The notes under the pieces are model-generated. The model searched no databases and was not told the origin of the DNA. It saw only the letters and a list, made by a program, of their open reading frames with translations. Positions 15,521 through 39,432 of a DNA stretch of 64,000 nucleotides are shown here, piece by piece (within the stretch, counting starts at the first letter, position 1; every line of letters begins with the position of its first letter). The DNA is taken from contig CAMCPL010000008.1 in the NCBI GenBank assembly GCA_945876745.1, positions 8,757-72,756 of the forward strand, given 5' to 3'. This DNA comes from an uncultured Clostridia bacterium. GTDB lineage: Bacteria > Bacillota > Clostridia > Oscillospirales > Acutalibacteraceae. A program made the translations under genes and the position numbers.

Positions 15521-15680
15521 TCTTTTATCCCCTCAGTCGGCAAAGCCGCCAGCTCCCCTTAATGACATTAAAAGGGGAGCCTTTGTTGGTTGAAAAAACG
15601 CTCTGTCTTGAACATTGGCTCCCCTTGTTTTGAAAATCAAGGGGAGCTGGCTCGCCACGGCGAGACTGAGGGGATAAAAG
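15521..15680. repeat. 160-bp composite inverted-repeat element (REPIN/MITE-like)
   Basis: Ends TCTTTTATCCC..TCAGTC / GACTGA.GGGATAAAAGA; each arm has an internal hairpin and a GCCAGCTCCCC..GGGGAGCC hairpin. Confidence 0.75.
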
Positions 15681-26678: not shown

Positions 26679-27665
26679 TCACTCGCCTTTGCCGTTTTGA
26701 TAGTTGATCTGTTCGGTTTTGATTACATCATATCTAATCAGCTCTGCGCTGTCCAAGTCCTCCTTGTGCATATCAACCGCCGAAATTTGATGGTTGTCGT
26801 AGGTTGTGTAGTAATAAATACCCTTTGCCGTGTTACAGCAGGAGGTATAAATAGTTATTTCGAGCTTGTCGCCGTTGACGTAATCACAGCCTCGCTGTTG
26901 GTCAACCGAGCCTAAAATGTGGAAAAATTGGTTCACGCTTTCGTTTTCACCGTCGCCCGATACGCTGTTCATTTTTACAAATGCAACACGTACAAATCTT
27001 GATTGCGACGACAAATCACCGGGTAATCCGAGCGCGCCCATTCCACGGCTGTACATATTTAAGCCCAGCTTGTCGCTGAATTTGTTTTCGGGGTCGCGCG
27101 GTGAAAGCCCGATGTAGTTGTTGAGGTTGAACATCTGCTTGTCAAACGGTGGATTGTTCGTCAGTACACCGACAGGATTGTCCCAAATTTTCAGTCCGTC
27201 TTCCATTGCTTCGACCGTTATTGCTTCGTCTTTGTCGGCGATTATCCAATGAAGCTGCGCCGCCGGAAGCCCCGACTTGAACTGCTGCTTTGTGATATTG
27301 ATGCGCTCAAGTCTTTGTCTTGCCTGTGCAACGCTGTCGCATTGTGCCAAAATCCACAGTATCAGCTCAAATTGCGCAACGTTTTCCCTGCCGTCGATAT
27401 CGTCGTTGTAGCACGCATTTCCGACAAAATTCAGCCCTGCCATTGCAAGACCTTTTTCATTAGCTGCGTCATAATACAACGGAAAATCGTCCATAACGCA
27501 CGCCATTCCGATTATTGCATTGTGCTCCTTGAGTTCAACGCCGTTGCGAAATGTAATAGGAAATTGCCTCGGCGTAATCACAACCTCGTCTCCGTATGAT
27601 ATCTCGTAATCAAGCGTTCTGCCAAAATAAAAATCCTTTGTTTTGTATGTTGCCGCCGTGCACAT
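26679..27665 (-). CDS. bsh: Choloylglycine hydrolase (bile salt hydrolase, Ntn hydrolase)
   Basis: MCT N-terminal Cys nucleophile; GRTLD; NEKGL; VLTNNP; GLPGD.SS.SRF; start revised to 27665. Confidence 0.9.
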   Translation of the reverse strand: MCTAATYKTKDFYFGRTLDYEISYGDEVVITPRQFPITFRNGVELKEHNAIIGMACVMDDFPLYYDAANEKGLAMAGLNFVGNACYNDDIDGRENVAQFELILWILAQCDSVAQARQRLERINITKQQFKSGLPAAQLHWIIADKDEAITVEAMEDGLKIWDNPVGVLTNNPPFDKQMFNLNNYIGLSPRDPENKFSDKLGLNMYSRGMGALGLPGDLSSQSRFVRVAFVKMNSVSGDGENESVNQFFHILGSVDQQRGCDYVNGDKLEITIYTSCCNTAKGIYYYTTYDNHQISAVDMHKEDLDSAELIRYDVIKTEQINYQNGKGE

Positions 27666-28271: not shown

Positions 28272-29369
28272 TTATACATATTTTTCTATCGAAACAATAT
28301 CGCCCTTAAATTGACTTAAATTTCCGTAATTACCTCTGACGGATTTCGGAATTTTGCTTTTTTGAACGTAAAATTCGATAACGTCCTTGTTCCTTACGGC
28401 GTATTGATTTTTTGCGTCTGTGTGACGGTTTGATTTTTGGTCGCAAAGAATGACCTTGAAGCTCGTTCCGGTTGAAAGCTCAATTCTGTATTTCGTGCCG
28501 ATTTTTGAGCCGTAATACGAGCCGAGCGCAACGCAGTAGCAATCGTCAACCATTCTTATGCCCGTTTCCTCGTCGGTATAACATTCACTCGAATTGAGCA
28601 GCTTATACTGCGCCGTTGACCTTGCGGTTACCGCGGTGTAGTGAGCGTATGTCTTTGTTCTTCCCGAAACCGACGGAAGTCCCATTTTTACAGGAGTTGT
28701 AACACTCTGTACTTCGTTTTCATAAGCCTTGCCCGATGCGGTTTTAACAACGGATTTGTAAAAATAAGCTTTGCCCTCGTCAACCTCACGGTCGATATAT
28801 TCGCTGTCGGTAACGGTTGCAATATGCTTTAAGTTGTTTTCGTTTTCGCCCTTGTAAAGCTCAACGCTCGCGCCGCTTTCTATGTCGCTCAATTCAAATC
28901 TAACAAAATCCGCAGCCACGTCAACGATTTCAACCCCTGCAACAAGCTCGCCTGTTGTAAAGCCGATTGCTCCCAAATATCTGTTTGAGGGTGCAGTCGC
29001 AATAATAAATTTATACTGCGTGTTAGGTGTGAGATTTGTCATTTCAATGAAAGTGTTGTTTGTTACGGCGTATCTCTCCTGCTTGAGAGTGTCCTCGTTG
29101 TATCGTATTACGCTGTATGAGGCGCCGTCGCCGATATCATTCCAGCTTAATGTTGCGGTTTTTGCACCAATATTGCCGACCGATATTTCAAATTCGTCGG
29201 ACTGCTCATTCGGCATTGAATGAAGCGCCGAGCTTTCCGGCGTTGATTTTGCCGAGGCGTTTGTAGTATTTCTTAATGACGTGTTGTCGGCATAAACGGT
29301 TAGACTTGAGCCAAGCGCAAAAAGCACCGCCATAACAACGCTTATAAGCCTGATTTTCGTAAGTCGAAT
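28272..29369 (-). CDS. Secreted protein with fibronectin-III-like repeats and C-terminal putative 3D/DPBB-like peptidoglycan domain
   Basis: Signal-peptide-like N-terminus; Fn3-like A.LSW..Y..NLTPNTQY; C-terminal GIRMVD..YCVALGSYYG..IGT; start uncertain (ATG 29333 or ATT 29369). Confidence 0.65.
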   Translation of the reverse strand: MRLTKIRLISVVMAVLFALGSSLTVYADNTSLRNTTNASAKSTPESSALHSMPNEQSDEFEISVGNIGAKTATLSWNDIGDGASYSVIRYNEDTLKQERYAVTNNTFIEMTNLTPNTQYKFIIATAPSNRYLGAIGFTTGELVAGVEIVDVAADFVRFELSDIESGASVELYKGENENNLKHIATVTDSEYIDREVDEGKAYFYKSVVKTASGKAYENEVQSVTTPVKMGLPSVSGRTKTYAHYTAVTARSTAQYKLLNSSECYTDEETGIRMVDDCYCVALGSYYGSKIGTKYRIELSTGTSFKVILCDQKSNRHTDAKNQYAVRNKDVIEFYVQKSKIPKSVRGNYGNLSQFKGDIVSIEKYV

Positions 29370-35700: not shown

Positions 35701-37338
35701 ATGAGAGAATTAGATAATTTGTGCGTTAATTGCTGGGGCGAGCTTACTTCGGGAAGCGTCTGCAATGAGTGCGGCTACGATAATGATGTAGAAAATGATA
35801 CTATGTATCTCCCTGCAAAAACAATACTTCAGGACAAATATATTGTCGGAACTGTCCAAAAGCACGACAGCGACGCCGTAACATATCTCGGCTATGACGG
35901 TCAGCTTGACAGACTTATCCTTATTCGTGAGCTTTATCCGAAGGGTATCGCAAACCGTCTTGAGGGTAATACCGATTTGCATATAAGACAGCGTTATCTT
36001 GACGAATTTGAGAATATCAAGAAATCGTATTATAAGCTGTGGACTACTCTTGAAAAGCTTCATTCGCTGTCGGCTGTAACGCCTGTTTACGATGTATTCG
36101 AGGCTAATGCAACGGTTTATGCAATTATTGAGGATATGGATTGCATTTCGCTTCGTGACTATCTTATCAGAAATGAGGCCGGCTATATTGCGTGGGAAAA
36201 TGCAAGAATTATGCTTATGCCGGTGCTCACCACTCTTGAGTCGCTTCATTCAAACGGCATTGTTCACGGTGGCGTTTCGCCCGACAATTTAATGCTTTGC
36301 CGTGACGGTAAGGTTAGGCTTGCGCCGTTTTCGATTACGCAGTCCTATGACTCGTCGAGCGTTCTTGAATTTTGCGAAAACGAGGGCTATACAGCCCTTG
36401 AGCAGTATGATAATAATCACAAAATCTGCGCCGCAACCGATATTTACAGCTTTTCTGCCTGCATATACAGGGCACTTGTCGGCACAAATCCGCCGTCAGC
36501 CGTATCTCGTGAGGCAAACGATAAGCTGATGATACCCAATGCAATCGCCGAGAATATTCCTATTCATGTAATTAAAGCGCTTGTCGGCGGCTTGCAGGTT
36601 TATCCCGAAAAGAGAATTAAAACTATTGACGCACTGCGTGAAATGCTTGACGCGGCTCCTGCCGTTCAGGCAAAAACAATTCCGCAAAAGGATATTTACC
36701 AAGAGGGTGCAACAGGAGGATATCCGGACTACAACAAGCCTACTAAGGCTGAAAAAAAGCGCAAAATTATTGCAACCATTCTTGCAGTTGCCGTTATTAT
36801 TACAATAATTGCTATTGGCGTTGTGCTTAAAACATCGGGAATTTTGAATAAACCCGTACAGGAGGAAGAGCAGTCGCAGGTTCTTGTAACTTACGAGGTG
36901 CCGAATTTTGTCAACAACGGTTATACCCAAAGTGATATCGAAAATAACGGCGCATGGAATGAGCAGTTTAATTTTGTATTCCAGGGCGAATACTCCGCCG
37001 ATACGGAGCAGGGAATTATTTTCAAGCAGAGCATTGAGCCCGGAACAAAGGTAACGCAGGGCTCGGATATAGTTTTAACCGTATCAAAGGGCGTTCAGAC
37101 CGAAAAGGTTCCAAACGTCGGCGCACTTACTATTGAAGAAGCAAAAAAGCAGCTTGAAGAGCTCGGTTTTAAGGTTACAACCGTCGAGGTTTACAACGAC
37201 GGCACTCATACAAAGGGTACCGTGAAGTCAACCACCGGCATAGCTCCGGCACCGGGTTCGGTTGTCGCAGTAGGCGAGGAGGTAATCCTGCAGGTTTACG
37301 GCGAGGTCGAAACAACCACCGAGCCCACAACCGAATAA
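35701..37338 (+). CDS. Zinc-ribbon / Hanks-type kinase-like (probably inactive) / TM / PASTA protein
   Basis: CxxC..CxxC N-terminus; kinase fold with degenerate catalytic motifs; TM helix; two PASTA repeats (VPNFV, VPNV..T.EEAKK.LE..GF.V). Confidence 0.82.
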   Translation: MRELDNLCVNCWGELTSGSVCNECGYDNDVENDTMYLPAKTILQDKYIVGTVQKHDSDAVTYLGYDGQLDRLILIRELYPKGIANRLEGNTDLHIRQRYLDEFENIKKSYYKLWTTLEKLHSLSAVTPVYDVFEANATVYAIIEDMDCISLRDYLIRNEAGYIAWENARIMLMPVLTTLESLHSNGIVHGGVSPDNLMLCRDGKVRLAPFSITQSYDSSSVLEFCENEGYTALEQYDNNHKICAATDIYSFSACIYRALVGTNPPSAVSREANDKLMIPNAIAENIPIHVIKALVGGLQVYPEKRIKTIDALREMLDAAPAVQAKTIPQKDIYQEGATGGYPDYNKPTKAEKKRKIIATILAVAVIITIIAIGVVLKTSGILNKPVQEEEQSQVLVTYEVPNFVNNGYTQSDIENNGAWNEQFNFVFQGEYSADTEQGIIFKQSIEPGTKVTQGSDIVLTVSKGVQTEKVPNVGALTIEEAKKQLEELGFKVTTVEVYNDGTHTKGTVKSTTGIAPAPGSVVAVGEEVILQVYGEVETTTEPTTE

Positions 37339-37464
37339 AAATCACATCGCAGGCTCGTCAATTGACGGGTCTGCTTTTTGGTATGGCGAAATCGGTCTTT
37401 CTGCCCGCTTCAGGCACAGTATCCGATGTCTTAAACATTTTTTTAATTTTTTCAAAAAAATCCC

Positions 37465-37493
37465 TTGACATTTCTCCCTTTGTCTGCTATTAT
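37465..37493 (+). promoter_or_regulatory. sigmaA promoter of tRNA-Asn
   Basis: TTGACA-17bp-TATTAT with extended TG. Confidence 0.75.
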
Positions 37494-37515
37494 GTATAAG
37501 CAATTGAAAAAGACA

Positions 37516-37592
37516 TTCCTCCTTAGCTCAGTCGGTAGAGCACTCGGCTGTTAACCGAGTTGTCGTTGGTTCAAGTCCAACAGGGGGAGCCA
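37516..37592 (+). tRNA. tRNA-Asn (GTT)
   Basis: Full cloverleaf: TCCTCCT/AGGGGGA acceptor, GCTC/GAGC D stem, CTCGG-CTGTTAA-CCGAG anticodon arm, GTTGG-TTCAAGT-CCAAC T arm, encoded CCA. Confidence 0.97.
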
Positions 37593-37594
37593 TG

Positions 37595-37623
37595 AAAAAG
37601 CACTTCTTCGGAAGTGCTTTTTT
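37595..37623 (+). terminator. tRNA terminator
   Basis: AAAAAGCACTTC-TTCG-GAAGTGCTTTTT. Confidence 0.9.
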
Positions 37624-37626
37624 CAA

Positions 37627-37790
37627 TGAAATTCGCCTACGGCGAGTGAAATATCCTGCGGATATGAAGTAGCTGACGCTATGAAATATTTGCTTCGCAA
37701 ATGTGATAGGCGAATTTTACTTCTCATTTTGTCGCTAGACAAAATATTTCATAATCGTCAGATTATTTCATATTGCGTAGCAATATTTCA
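37627..37790. repeat. Array of seven short hairpins with TGAAA / TTTCA linkers in mirror arrangement
   Basis: 4x TGAA(A/G)+hairpin, then a 23-bp centre, then 3x hairpin+TTTCA. Confidence 0.85.
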
Positions 37791-37822
37791 TTATATATGT
37801 TGTAATGTTATCGGTGATGGAG

Positions 37823-38170
37823 ATGAAAGAGAACAAGCTTGTTGATTTATCAATGGATTTTGCGGTAAACATAATGAGAATCTGCGACAAAATCAAAGGA
37901 CATTATTCAACGGTAAATCAGTTGGAACGCTCGGGTACAAGTATCGGAGCTAATATTCGTGAAGCAAACTACGCTCACAGCAAGAATGATTTTATTGCAA
38001 AACTTCAGATATCACTGAAAGAATGCTATGAAACAGAGTATTGGATTGAGCTTTTCGTTAAAGCGCAACTGCTGGATCGAGATGAAGCAAAGGTATTATA
38101 TAACGAATGCGGAACAATTAGAAGATTGCTTGTTGCCTCTATTAACACTGCTAAGGAGAATATGAAATGA
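37823..38170 (+). CDS. Four-helix-bundle protein (23S rRNA IVP / Avd-like, TIGR02436 type)
   Basis: QL.RSGTSIGANI.EA..A.S..DFI.KL.I..KEC.ET.YW.EL signature; start probably ATG 37823. Confidence 0.9.
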   Translation: MKENKLVDLSMDFAVNIMRICDKIKGHYSTVNQLERSGTSIGANIREANYAHSKNDFIAKLQISLKECYETEYWIELFVKAQLLDRDEAKVLYNECGTIRRLLVASINTAKENMK

Positions 38171-38204
38171 ATTGCAATAAGTAGCTTTTTCGTTACAAAA
38201 ACAT

Positions 38205-38243
38205 AAATCCCCAAAGACTTCACATTGTCTTTGGGGGCTTTTT
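38205..38243. terminator. Bidirectional terminator
   Basis: CCCCAAAGAC / GTCTTTGGGG stem with A- and T-rich flanks. Confidence 0.75.
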
Positions 38244-39432
38244 AATACTCATATTTCCCGTGAGGGGTGGAATTGAATTTATCAATAACAACCTGATATC
38301 TATTATATGCATTCTTAATGCTTTCGTCCCAGCTGATGTAGATATCGTTTTGCGCCTTTTTGCCTACGCGGCAAAGCAGGTCTTTATTGTCGATGACATT
38401 GTCAATTACCCTTGCAACGCTGCGTGATGTTTCAAGGCAGAGGAAGCCTGTTTGAGCGTCTTTTATTCCCTCGCCTGCGCACGAGCCTGCAACAACGAGT
38501 GCAGGAGTTGCGCTTGCCGCCGCCTCACGAACAACAAGACCGTTTGTATCAAACGTGCTCGGGAACACAAGCAAATCGGCGGTACCGTAGTAAATTTGAA
38601 GCTCGCTTCTGTCGTCGAGATTGCCTGTGAAAATCACCTTGTCATCAAGTGCGAGCTTGCGTGTGAATTTTTTTATGGCGTTTTCGTCGGGTCCCATACC
38701 AATCATAATCATACGAAAATCTCTGCCGTCGGTTTTGAGAATTTTGCACGCTTCAAGAATGATATCAATATTTTTGTACCACATCATTCTGCCGACAAAA
38801 AGCAGAATCGGAATACCGTTTGGGATATTGTGCTTGCGCCTTATCATCGCCTTCATAGCGTCGTCGCACTCTGTTTTCGGCAGGTCGCAGCCGTTTGGCA
38901 TAACGACAAAATCGCCCTCGTAGCCGACCTTGCGAAGACTGTCCGAGGTACCCTTGCTCGTCACCCAAACCTCGTCGGCGGCCTTGATGTTATTGAGCAG
39001 CATACCGTATGCTCTGTGACGAAGTGCAAGCGACTTTACTCTGCTGTCGAAGTCGTATTCGTATTTTGTGTGGTATGTCAGAATATGAGGAATACGCTTA
39101 ATGCGGTTGATTCTTCTGAAAAAATAGCTTGTCGCAATAGGACAATGAGAATGAAGAACGTCGAAATTCCTGTTAATAATATCATCGGCGAACTGCCTTT
39201 TGAACGGCCAGCCGACAGGATAACCCTCGCCGAAGGTAAACAGGCTTTTGTATCTGTAAATTTCATAAGGAAATTTGTAGTCATAGCTATTCGGAATTTC
39301 GGGTACAACGATAGTAGCCGTGCCGAGCTTTTCGTTAATAATATCGGCATAGCATTTTGCAACCGTGCTTATTCCGTCGACAGTCGGCGGAAACGCTTCG
39401 GTTCCTATGGCAATTTTCAGACCGTTTTCCAT
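38242..39432 (-). CDS. GT4 (GT-B) glycosyltransferase, diacylglycerol glucosyltransferase-like
   Basis: FPP.VDG; H.H.P; TYHT.Y; LFVGR...KN; FPS.FDT.GLVV.EA; start revised to 39432. Confidence 0.88.
   Translation of the reverse strand: MENGLKIAIGTEAFPPTVDGISTVAKCYADIINEKLGTATIVVPEIPNSYDYKFPYEIYRYKSLFTFGEGYPVGWPFKRQFADDIINRNFDVLHSHCPIATSYFFRRINRIKRIPHILTYHTKYEYDFDSRVKSLALRHRAYGMLLNNIKAADEVWVTSKGTSDSLRKVGYEGDFVVMPNGCDLPKTECDDAMKAMIRRKHNIPNGIPILLFVGRMMWYKNIDIILEACKILKTDGRDFRMIMIGMGPDENAIKKFTRKLALDDKVIFTGNLDDRSELQIYYGTADLLVFPSTFDTNGLVVREAAASATPALVVAGSCAGEGIKDAQTGFLCLETSRSVARVIDNVIDNKDLLCRVGKKAQNDIYISWDESIKNAYNRYQVVIDKFNSTPHGKYEY

Follow-up and report, generated by a model that had tools for sequence, protein, structure and literature searches.

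Gut-1-type hairpin arrays and genes for PF05635 four-helix-bundle proteins are coupled in a cassette of gut Clostridia

Behind a tRNA-Asn gene of an uncultured Clostridia bacterium lies a row of seven small hairpins that is arranged as a mirror image of itself and leads into a gene for a small four-helix-bundle (4HB) protein. This locus raises the question of what such an array is, and whether array and gene belong together. The window, by which we mean the whole stretch of 64,000 nucleotides that was analysed, bears out the basic description given in the original prediction, namely four units of TGAAA or TGAAG plus a hairpin, a centre, and three units of a hairpin plus TTTCA (37627-37790). 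As explained below, the array turns out to be a known motif, and the locus to be one copy of a cassette of ~650 bp (37593-38240) that is widespread in gut Clostridia and sits directly behind the CCA end of tRNA or tmRNA genes.

The cassette and its dyad array

The cassette consists, in this order, of its own bidirectional terminator, the dyad array, a promoter, a 4HB gene of the PF05635/TIGR02436 family and a second terminator. All features are on the plus strand, except for the two terminators, which have no strand. The tRNA-Asn(GTT) gene (37517-37592, 69 bits) and its sigma-70 promoter (TTGACA-17-TATTAT, 37465-37493, 11 of 12 matches) are context outside the cassette, which begins right after the CCA end. 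The first terminator hairpin (37595-37622) comprises an A-tract, GCACTTC-TTCG-GAAGTGC and a T-tract, and its perfect 12-nt arms read AAAAAGCACTTC-TTCG-GAAGTGCTTTTT. Downstream of the array, TGTTGTAAT (37798-37806) is the probable extended -10 element of the 4HB promoter, identified by eye and aligned with the TG-n-TATAAT of close relatives; its -35 position falls within the last array unit, and a consensus promoter scan made no call at 37798-37806. The 4HB gene (37823-38170, SD GGTGA at 37813-37817) encodes 115 amino acids, with its start set by alignment with relatives. A bidirectional terminator that is common with a convergent GT4 gene (38208-38237) is likely the right boundary of the cassette. 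The flanking genes encode a PASTA (pseudo)kinase and a GT4 glycosyltransferase, for which an exact-protein look-up gave no record. Neither is a reverse transcriptase or a recombinase and no integrase is adjacent, so the gene neighbours agree with what had been predicted on this point.

The left half-array (37627-37702) contains four copies of the word TGAAAT/TGAAGT, each followed by a mini-hairpin: TGAAA (37627-37631) with H1 (TCGCC-TAC-GGCGA, 37633-37645), TGAAA (37647-37651) with H2 (TATCC-TGC-GGATA, 37652-37664), TGAAG (37665-37669) with H3 (TAGC-TGAC-GCTA, 37670-37681) and TGAAA (37682-37686) with H4 (ATTTGC-TTC-GCAAAT, 37688-37702). After the centre (37703-37726), the right half-array (37727-37790) has three mini-hairpins, each followed by the word (T)ATTTCA(T): H5 (TTTTGTC-GCTA-GACAAAA, 37727-37744) with TTTCA (37747-37751), H6 (TAATC-GTCA-GATTA, 37752-37765) with TTTCA (37766-37770) and H7 (TATTGC-GTA-GCAATA, 37771-37785) with TTTCA (37786-37790).

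The array is not a new motif but two inverted copies of the orphan Gut-1 motif (Rfam RF01706), which had gone unrecognised in the original prediction. The left half (37624-37692, plus strand) is a member, with 50.1 bits (E = 1.1e-8) at a gathering cut-off of 50, the right half (37741-37813, minus strand) matches with 39 bits, which is under this cut-off, and the array has the three hairpins, (G)UGAAAU linkers and covariation by which Gut-1 is recognised. Gut-1 was described as three to four short hairpins with GUGAAAU-type linkers (Weinberg et al. 2010, PMC2864571). The published motif corresponds to one half-array, without gene association or function, and was ‘detected only in environmental sequences’ (PMC2864571); Rfam gives its type as ‘Gene; sRNA’. 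Hairpins, linkers and the gut Clostridia habitat are thus common to both, whereas the present array differs from the published motif in being a dyad with a helix between head and centre (see below), in having a terminator and a promoter of its own together with an obligate 4HB partner, and in lying behind tRNAs.

The stems vary between arrays while linkers and geometry are kept, as predicted. Since a MAFFT alignment of 28 arrays slips register in H2-H3, we parsed the arrays unit by unit; H2 is variable between them and H7 constant. Although stem sequences differ, 98% of stem pairs are Watson-Crick (504 Watson-Crick, 3 GT and 6 AC pairs in left halves; 651, 8 and 2 in right halves), and the wobble share is below 1%. 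The loops of left-half hairpins have the form T..C in 126 of 183 cases and G..A in 2 of 183, with a C-G closing pair in 92%; right-half loops have the form G..A in 84 of 241. Because the stems vary yet stay perfectly paired, and because the loops follow a strand-specific rule, we infer that the formation of the mini-hairpins is itself selected. The array folds far better than expected, with z-scores of -5.5 (DNA, plus strand), -5.2 (DNA, minus strand) and -7.2 (RNA), and none of 200 shuffles folded as well.

A further element, absent from the original prediction, is a long-range helix. The head AAATTCGCCTA (37629-37639), made up of a linker and the 5′ arm of H1, has two alternative pairing partners: the 3′ arm of H1, and the centre, which holds two degenerate words and the perfectly complementary TAGGCGAATTT (37707-37717). 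This pairing covaries in 37 arrays of at least eight sequence classes, with a mean exact run of 10.7 nt compared with 7.4 nt in cross-locus controls. Folded as RNA, the array gains 10-13 kcal/mol when the local hairpins give way to an alternative long-range fold. The branched ladder between left and right linkers that had been proposed is thermodynamically possible, being present in the MFE fold of every array, but its pattern differs from array to array; we therefore rejected it as a conserved structure, and the head-centre helix alone is conserved.

Coupling of arrays and four-helix-bundle genes

The data support the proposal that array and Avd-like gene belong to a single module. All five PF05635 genes of the source genome are directly preceded by an array, and the array likewise comes before the 4HB gene at nearly all of 80 homologous loci. 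Among 151 genomes of the order, 56 have both Gut-1 and PF05635, 9 Gut-1 only, 15 a 4HB gene only and 71 neither, which corresponds to an odds ratio of 29 (p = 6e-18). Among 60 further 4HB genes, 26 have a strict mirrored word array ahead of them, whereas 600 shuffles gave none. We found no description of this link in the literature searched.

All units of a given array have one word in common, and the second half carries its reverse complement. The words of the source genome's arrays are TGAAAT, GATGATAT and TCGATAT, the last of which belongs to the paralogue at G000:C6:17887, and those of other genomes include ATGATG, ATGAAG, AGTTAT, TGAATT, GTGATG and AGCTAA. The linker words can therefore differ entirely, so that Rfam misses many relatives. 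In genomes that are negative for Gut-1, the 4HB genes carry arrays of words of ~7 nt without hairpins (TATTCAT five times and mirrored, GCAAATT seven times, AATGCAG six times, ATTAACA five times), and it is therefore the word, rather than the hairpin, that is the constant partner of the 4HB gene. Frequent sites of these hairpin-free arrays are mRNA leaders and intercistronic spacers (loci L193, L194, L196, L197, L213 and L249). In 25 of 65 relatives, a promoter of at least 10 of 12 matches, mostly TTGAAA-17-TATAAT, begins immediately behind the last word, compared with 1.5% of shuffles. Gut-1 and PF05635 are thus coupled physically and phylogenetically, and each gene has its own word-coded array. 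The heptamer STRR repeats of cyanobacteria were considered as kin of the hairpin-free arrays and rejected, as a 4HB-like ORF was found at only 2 of 80 (CCCCAGT)n loci with a custom 4HB HMM of limited sensitivity.

The coupling is not reciprocal. It had been reasoned that arrays scattered through the genome irrespective of these genes would speak against a common module. Arrays do outnumber 4HB genes in the source genome (~25 compared with 5) and most lie without one, one word type among its arrays (TGAAGT) has no matching 4HB gene, and a further genome (G151, 96% complete) has seven Gut-1 matches and no 4HB gene; on the other hand, every 4HB gene of the source genome has an array. The matching of words and proteins seen in these comparisons may equally reflect simple co-inheritance of neighbouring DNA, from which it is inseparable.

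The cassette protein is a clear member of its family, with 88.2 bits for PF05635 (cut-off 33.8) and 99.3 bits for TIGR02436 (cut-off 24). It also matches PDB 2RLD (E = 1e-23), its closest solved relative, the single entry of which contains five chains. No PADLOC defence-system match and no phage-family membership were found for the protein. PF05635/TIGR02436 is a very large family, including IVS proteins and relatives of Avd, and we know of no function for it outside DGRs. The DGR accessory protein Avd (bAvd, PDB 4DWL) is basic and binds nucleic acid. The 4HB proteins of these cassettes resemble Avd in being small, probably oligomeric and tied to a structured nucleic acid, and differ in being near neutral (median pI 6.8 and net charge 0, n = 78; pI 7.7 for the cassette protein) and in the absence of DGR parts nearby. 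Avd and PF05635/TIGR02436 belong to one homologous fold family (PMC10053308). The locus itself is not a DGR, with a PASTA kinase and GT4 as neighbours and neither a reverse transcriptase nor a template/variable repeat pair nearby; the sole RVT_1 match of the source genome, on contig C9, is of a broken group II intron type. Nor is it a 23S rRNA intervening sequence: the protein has clear sequence membership with 23S IVS proteins, but this copy lies outside any rRNA intervening sequence, between tRNA-Asn and a glycosyltransferase, and there is no rRNA match in 37300-38300.

Possible roles of the words and hairpins

We tentatively propose, while judging that it could well be wrong, that the adjacent 4HB protein forms an oligomer whose cognate cis-site is the repeated word (TGAAAT in this array, ATTTCA in its mirrored half), displayed single-stranded between looped-out mini-hairpins. 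In a single-stranded array, the very stable mini-hairpins would loop out and leave about five words per half displayed in tandem, to which a ring of 4HB proteins would bind. Binding of the ring would compete with long-range pairing, that is, with the head-centre helix and with pairing between words and anti-words. As the ligand we favour folded single-stranded DNA (ssDNA), such as the template of the lagging strand or DNA unwound in some other way; through the mirrored design, each strand would then present the same half-array. Given that the last unit adjoins or extends into the -35 region of the 4HB promoter, the simplest output would be that the cassette regulates its own promoter by feedback, and the same protein-DNA complex may also serve in maintenance or docking of the cassette.

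Several observations bear on whether the folded form is DNA or RNA, and they slightly favour ssDNA. On one strand of each half, the loops are of the d(C-GNA-G) or d(C-GNNA-G) kind. Such loops form ‘extraordinarily stable mini-hairpin DNA’, to which SSB binds poorly and which is known from N4 promoters and from sites where ssDNA is primed (PMC13037366), with a stability that depends on the closing pair (PMC3201870). The wobble share below 1%, the mirrored loops and the position of the array between a terminator and a promoter are likewise hints of DNA. On the other hand, the few wobble pairs of both halves are biased towards the gene-sense strand (21 GT and 8 AC, p = 0.04), which would fit one folded sense strand, be it RNA or one DNA strand, better than a strict two-strand mechanism. 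The idea that the strand with GNA loops is the folded one in both halves was not supported by the wobble test (13 compared with 16).

The closest analogies for a site acting as ssDNA are the ssi signals (the G4 origin, RSF1010, N4 promoters), which also use C-GNA-G/GNNA mini-hairpins; RSF1010 ssiA and ssiB are two signals on opposite strands (PMC13037366). This likeness is an analogy only, as ssi signals are not known to form arrays of seven to eight units with a recurring word, and no primase or replicon context of the array was found. The ring with one short word per protomer recalls TRAP, as do the tandem 7-nt words upstream of the SD at some 4HB loci, although the fold is unrelated and the cassette's words are interleaved with hairpins and mirrored.

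Possible too, though on the unlikely side, is that the same cognate pair works at the level of RNA, with an array transcript, arising as a leader or through read-through from the strong promoter of the tRNA, that folds and is bound at its single-stranded words by the 4HB oligomer, much as in TRAP, the contacts of Avd with Sp RNA, or translational feedback. The mirrored half would then be an anti-word that sequesters the words in an alternative fold. Both Rfam and Weinberg class Gut-1 as RNA, and the family context points the same way, given that Avd works with DGR RNA and that IVS proteins are encoded inside rRNA (PMC10053308). The sense-strand wobble excess, the RNA z-score, the energy advantage of the long-range fold and the orientation of the cassette, which always follows that of the tRNA (see below), are all compatible with RNA. 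So are the hairpin-free or direct word arrays in transcribed leaders and spacers just before the SD of 4HB genes, two of which (L194 and L197) lie downstream of consensus promoters, and the position of these arrays would fit RNA better than DNA. Against RNA speak the good intrinsic terminator ahead of the array, the consensus promoter that many relatives have behind it, and the rarity of G-U pairs in the stems. Moreover, left loops would read UNC and right loops GNA, so that a single RNA would need two reasons for the mirrored loop rule.

We regard it as improbable that the array is instead a structured selfish repeat, akin to REP/BIME or MITE elements, spread by an enzyme acting in trans such as a RAYT-type Y1 transposase or another recombinase, with the 4HB gene hitch-hiking or borrowing a promoter and its protein not binding the array. 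The genome is indeed full of short mosaic intergenic repeats, most of its ~25 Gut-1-type arrays have no 4HB gene, and a related hairpin precedes non-mirror arrays. There is also a RAYT-like gene (G000:C10:3623-4381, best match NF047646, with an in-frame stop) that has inverted REP-like hairpins and part of a Gut-1 array at its flanks. Like REP/BIME elements, the arrays consist of intergenic hairpins present in many copies, flanked by a short conserved word and arranged in mosaic or inverted fashion. In the arrays, however, it is the words that are conserved and not the stems, unlike in REPs, and the arrays track 4HB genes rather than Y1 transposases: Y1 and Gut-1 are weakly associated among the 151 genomes (28/37/25/61, odds ratio 1.85, p = 0.09), and the ten genomes richest in arrays all lack a Y1 gene, whereas 4HB genes are present in them. 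Because of this weak order-wide association we rejected RAYT as a general mobiliser. The arrays do not qualify as REP/BIME with RAYT, and the hairpins at the RAYT-like pseudogene are different, REP-like ones. A selfish repeat would also leave unexplained the array at every 4HB gene and the hairpin-free word arrays.

Less probable still is a double-stranded operator or UP-like array, in which the words would be duplex sites, spaced by 17-19 bp, for the 4HB protein or a host regulator of the 4HB promoter, with the palindromes as incidental spacers. The array does abut or overlap the promoter, inverted sites about a centre are typical of operators, and the word spacing approaches two helical turns (19 and 20). 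Incidental spacers would not account for variable yet perfectly paired stems with a strand-specific loop rule, and words that recur in tandem every 7 nt, as in the hairpin-free arrays, do not fit one face of B-DNA.

Docking behind tRNA genes

Turning from the proposed ssDNA-binding complex to how the cassette reaches its sites, a same-strand tRNA precedes the 4HB gene in 48 of 70 testable loci, with 26 different anticodons, and the cassette is co-oriented with the tRNA in all 48. In the source genome, arrays lie behind 9 of 41 tRNAs and behind the tmRNA. Families of terminator hairpins are common to loci behind different tRNAs, with a near-identical hairpin after a tRNA-Lys (L101); behind the 3′ end of the tmRNA gene, 25 congeners vary in having arrays of different types, other small elements or no element at all; and many relatives have a variable cargo gene after the 4HB gene. 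By the anticodons, terminator families and tmRNA flanks, the module is apparently a small mobile unit behind tRNA genes, as the original prediction had suggested.

No vehicle or empty site was found for this locus. The GT4 gene and the pseudokinase were located in 24 congeners, where they adjoin neither tRNA-Asn nor a 4HB gene; no pair of empty and filled sites was found, because synteny is broken on both sides. No plasmid matched, and the one matching phage entry, an ‘UNVERIFIED bacteriophage’ contig, looks bacterial. Retro-docking at the CCA end by a reverse transcriptase is not supported by the counts of RVT_1 and Gut-1 (19/46/17/69, odds ratio ~1.7, 151 genomes), and the array-rich genomes have no reverse transcriptase.

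At L052, L053, L095, L100 and the tmRNA loci of congeners, the final 17-22 nt of the tRNA or tmRNA are indeed present as direct repeats, but these flank a different small element (‘X’) or islands inserted upstream of the cassette, and not the cassette. A repeat of the tRNA-Asn 3′ end was looked for downstream of the cassette and not found, and a copy with one mismatch at 15616-15629 (minus strand), considered as an att site, belongs to an unrelated hairpin repeat; with no adjacent integrase either, we rejected a tyrosine-integrase tRNA island. That the array is the arm-type or att region left by an integrase-mediated island is therefore highly improbable, even though tRNA and tmRNA 3′ ends are classic integrase targets and some loci have such repeats, as one cassette family is found behind 26 different tRNAs.

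Two other systems of small units were compared. Integrons likewise have small cassettes with variable cargo and a non-coding site (attC) that acts as folded ssDNA, but the present cassettes dock behind tRNA/tmRNA CCA ends or terminators, each with its own promoter and terminator, and the locus, with no adjacent recombinase, no attI and no attC box structure, is not an integron cassette. Type III toxin-antitoxin systems (ToxIN-like) have identical direct repeats of ~36 nt, a terminator and a toxin of the ToxN/AbiQ fold. The array does not belong to these, as its units are 17-19 nt long and mirrored with differing stems, and its protein is PF05635 without a PADLOC match.

It is conceivable, though we think it rather unlikely, that Gut-1-type arrays and PF05635 form a sequence-coded system, in which clade-specific rings would read their own word of 6-7 nt, shown about five times per half-array between the looped-out mini-hairpins. 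Beyond autoregulation, the complex would let a cassette of 0.6-1 kb, equipped with a terminator, a promoter and in some cases cargo, dock precisely behind the CCA end of a tRNA or tmRNA without encoding a recombinase. Gut-1 has been an orphan ‘structured RNA’ since 2010, and its coupling with PF05635 turns both orphans into one testable protein-nucleic-acid system, and possibly into a recombinase-less mobile cassette of abundant gut bacteria. If sequence-coded docking proved true, the cassettes would represent a new class of mobile elements, which would also explain the IVS proteins of 23S rRNA and the origin of the Avd of DGRs.

Anatomy of the locus and its identity as Gut-1

In the window, tRNA-Asn(GTT) (37517-37592), which has a consensus promoter at 37465-37493, is directly followed by a perfect A-tract/hairpin/T-tract terminator (37595-37622). 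Direct reading of the sequence bore out the array of the original prediction, with four plus three units around a centre. The left half-array consists of four TGAAA/G linkers, each followed by a mini-hairpin (37627-37702), and the right half-array of three mini-hairpins, each followed by TTTCA (37727-37790), with a centre of about 24 nt (37703-37726) between them. Compared with shuffled sequence, folding gave z-scores of -5.5 and -5.2 for the two strands as DNA, and -7.2 as RNA. The downstream gene (start 37823) encodes a 115-aa four-helix-bundle (4HB) protein, PF05635/TIGR02436, whose nearest solved structure is 2RLD, a single entry with five chains. A bidirectional terminator 3′ of this gene (38208-38237) is shared with a convergent glycosyltransferase gene. 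The window's subfamily has an extended -10 element, TGTTGTAAT (37798-37806), with the -35 position inside the last array unit; this site was assigned by eye, the promoter scan having made no call there. We refer to the whole unit, from terminator to terminator (37593-38240, about 650 bp), as the cassette. Its neighbours are the genes of a PASTA (pseudo)kinase and of a GT4 enzyme; it carries no cargo gene and, as had been noted originally, has neither a reverse transcriptase nor a recombinase among its adjoining genes.

The array corresponds to an orphan motif already on record, Gut-1 (Rfam RF01706), in doubled form: one match lies on the + strand (37624-37692, 50.1 bits) and a second on the - strand (37741-37813, 39 bits), the cut-off being 50. 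Gut-1 was first described in 2010 from human-gut metagenomes, with neither a function nor a gene association, and as present in no sequenced organism (PMC2864571). The window's genome has 31 Gut-1-like matches, a lower bound, as are all copy numbers here, since arrays interrupt short-read assemblies. Contigs of this genome end within repeats or arrays at C4:1-55, C5:100, C6:138823-end, C10:1-58, C12:1-73 (identical to C7:1-73) and the end of C17; the 4HB gene on C17 is probably continuous with a contig end at tRNA-Val or tRNA-Ser.

None of 24 congeners shares the gene order pseudokinase, tRNA-Asn, cassette, GT4 (37340-37520 region). What comes after the kinase in the closest relatives is an inverted homologue of window positions 28278-29231, which suggests an inversion or rearrangement with its breakpoint at the tRNA-Asn/cassette region. 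Elsewhere in the window, the stretches 26117-26697 and 15522-15615 belong to short, mosaic repeats that recur many times between genes of this genome, an example being a module of about 370 bp with copies at C1:119455, C1:245840, C13:22163 and C1:356120. This multi-copy nature bears on a type I toxin-antitoxin-like reading of 26117-26697.

Partner genes of the arrays

All five PF05635 genes in the window's genome have a mirror array immediately 5′, and the window gene is a member of this protein family just as its array is a member of Gut-1. We compared the distribution of Gut-1 with that of candidate partners across one set of 151 genomes from the order (counts: both, Gut-1 only, partner only, neither). 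The association was strong for PF05635 (56, 9, 15, 71; odds ratio 29, p = 6e-18), as against Y1 transposases of the RAYT/IS200 type (28, 37, 25, 61; odds ratio 1.85, p = 0.09) and reverse transcriptases (RVT_1; 19, 46, 17, 69; odds ratio about 1.7). The latter two are both absent from the most array-rich genomes of this set, in which 4HB genes are present.

The window's genome does contain a RAYT-like Y1 transposase gene (C10:3196-4381; best NCBIfam match, REP-associated tyrosine transposase), which is interrupted by an in-frame TAA and has a truncated duplicate 5′ of it. Inverted REP-like hairpins of 25 nt (CAATCAGGGGACGGTTCTCTGATTG) lie on either side of the gene and a partial Gut-1 array follows, and related hairpins (CACAGGGGACGG..CTGTG) lie 5′ of the genome's non-mirror Gut-1 arrays. 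This gene does not explain the array family. The sole RVT_1 match in the genome (C9:18796-20186) is a reverse transcriptase/maturase of the group II intron type that is divided over two frames, of 341 and 148 aa; a tyrosine integrase gene (C9:21339-22535) lies next to it. Among known systems, diversity-generating retroelements (DGRs) were rejected, there being neither a reverse transcriptase nor a template/variable repeat pair, and for rRNA intervening sequences, integrons, type III toxin-antitoxin systems and REP/RAYT systems at least one defining feature that was tested is lacking.

Docking behind tRNA and tmRNA genes

The window element is very probably one member of a family of array-plus-4HB cassettes. 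In 80 homologous loci of other Clostridia the order is near-invariant: tRNA CCA end, terminator, four word-plus-hairpin units, centre, three to four units of hairpin plus reverse-complementary word (anti-word), promoter and 4HB gene. A promoter scoring at least 10/12 (mostly TTGAAA-17-TATAAT) directly follows the last word in 25/65 relatives, compared with 1.5% of shuffles. Many relatives also carry variable cargo genes 3′ of the 4HB gene (Nudix, GNAT, MazG-like, SDR).

A same-strand tRNA ends 220-285 nt 5′ of the 4HB gene in 48 of the 70 testable loci, with 26 different anticodons, and in the window's genome arrays lie 3′ of 9 of the 41 tRNAs and of tmRNA, some without a 4HB gene. The terminator is part of the cassette rather than of the tRNA: identical terminator hairpin families (e.g. 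GAACCCACATTTGTCTACGACAAGTGTGGGTTC, GCACTTGCGTAAGCAAGTGC) occur behind different tRNAs, and the window terminator, GCACTTCTTCGGAAGTGC, has a near-match behind tRNA-Lys at locus L101. In 25 congeners, the flank after the CCA of the single tmRNA gene is polymorphic. The window's genome has a type-B hairpin array there; congeners have a type-A array with other words, word arrays without hairpins, another kind of small element that closes with a repeated tmRNA 3′ end, or a plain terminator. This variety indicates repeated independent docking. For the window locus itself, no empty site was demonstrable among 24 congeners, since none of them keeps synteny on either side.

Several related arrangements were seen. 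After the tmRNA of the window's genome (tag DKNTVTLKAA; C1:158704-159398) come a terminator and then a type-B array without a gene (ATATCATC/GATGATAT), as far as a convergent tRNA-Gly. An element 'X' of about 110-170 bp, distinct from the hairpin cassette and containing AAACAGTCCGGTGGACTGTT, lies behind tmRNA and tRNA genes (congener tmRNA loci L374, L378, L381, L382, L384, L388, L389, L395 and L397; also L052, L053 and L095). At its end the 3′-terminal 17-22 nt of the tmRNA/tRNA are directly repeated, an att-like duplication absent from hairpin cassettes; where both share a locus, X lies between the tmRNA/tRNA gene and the cassette. In a human faecal sequence deposited as 'UNVERIFIED Bacteriophage sp.' (L372, MT835590.1), a complete cassette (2330-2990) sits behind a protein-coding gene's terminator, so tRNA genes are not the exclusive docking site; the contig looks bacterial, as the 5.4 kb read includes genes for a sugar kinase and a TetR protein but none of phage type. 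In the window's genome, an 84-aa ORF without a Pfam match (C4:174480-174734) takes the 4HB gene's place after a tRNA-Cys-linked mirror array, and a SUFU-family gene (PF05076; C10:4730-5362) lies between two Gut-1-type repeat modules.

Words, hairpins and a candidate reader

Each of the five mirror arrays in the window's genome has a second half whose word is the reverse complement of the first half's: TGAAAT/ATTTCA in two, including the window, ATATCATC/GATGATAT in two others, and ATATCGA/TCGATAT in the fifth. In Gut-1-negative genomes, 4HB genes also have short repeated-word arrays 5′, often without hairpins. Such arrays occur behind tRNAs (TATTCAT x5, a centre complementary to a terminator arm, ATGAAT x4) and directly 5′ of the SD (GCAAATT x7, AATGCAG x6, ATTAACA x5, CTATTCA x4), and an hsdM-4HB spacer holds CATAATG x5 plus mirrored ATTATGC x2. 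Strict mirrored word arrays were found at 26/60 further 4HB genes and in 0/600 shuffles. Thus the word rather than the hairpin is the constant. By eye, four 4HB genes in other genomes of the order (L140, L144, L145, L193) follow hsdM-like genes in apparent type I restriction-modification operons, each with tandem or mirrored heptamer words 5′, e.g. CATAATG.

Any one array uses a single word throughout, and words vary from array to array. Judged from sequence, they behave as would sites bound by a reader specific to each array, for which the adjacent 4HB protein is the obvious candidate; since adjacency implies co-inheritance, a test of words against proteins is not independent. The array would then be the cognate cis-site of a 4HB oligomer, read single-stranded and hairpin-folded. 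Against this, the proteins are near neutral (median pI 6.8).

Stem sequences vary among units and loci, with about 98% Watson-Crick pairs. Left-half loops are T..C in 126/183 hairpins and G..A in 2/183, with a C-G closing pair in 92%, and right-half loops are G..A in 84/241. The loop rule is mirrored and reads, on the appropriate strand, C-GNA-G or C-GNNA-G, an 'extraordinarily stable mini-hairpin DNA' that occurs at N4 promoters and at priming sites in ssDNA and to which SSB binds poorly (PMC13037366); its stability is dependent on the C-G closing pair (PMC3201870). Wobble pairs (<1% of stem pairs) are biased in both halves to the gene-sense strand (21 G.T vs 8 A.C, p = 0.04), with no bias to the GNA-loop strand (13 vs 16). 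The head (linker plus 5′ arm of the first hairpin, 37629-37639) is complementary to the centre (37707-37717), so that a long-range helix enclosing the second to fourth hairpins could replace the first. This three-part arrangement covaries across at least 8 sequence classes, with a mean exact run of 10.7 nt vs 7.4 in cross-locus controls. The branched ladder originally proposed is possible, in that every minimum-energy fold contains left-right long-range pairs and is more stable by 10-13 kcal/mol than a fold with only the local hairpins, but the ladder is not conserved, as the pairing pattern differs among arrays.

The evidence on the ligand is divided. The mirrored C-GNA-G loops, the near absence of wobble pairs and the placement of the array between terminator and promoter favour ssDNA, and we tentatively suggest that the 4HB protein may read its cis-site in this form. 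That the site is instead read as RNA is a somewhat doubtful alternative, to which the RNA contexts of the 4HB family, the occurrence of word arrays within mRNA leaders, the preference of the rare wobble pairs for the sense strand and the fixed co-orientation with tRNA genes all point. We consider it unlikely that the array is a selfish repeat that binds no protein, more improbable still that it is a duplex operator, and very improbable that it is an integrase relic. As a cis-site of the 4HB protein, the array would come closest in its possible working mode, by analogy only, to the tandem words read by ring proteins such as TRAP and to ssiA/ssiB of RSF1010, which are ssDNA mini-hairpin signals on opposite strands.
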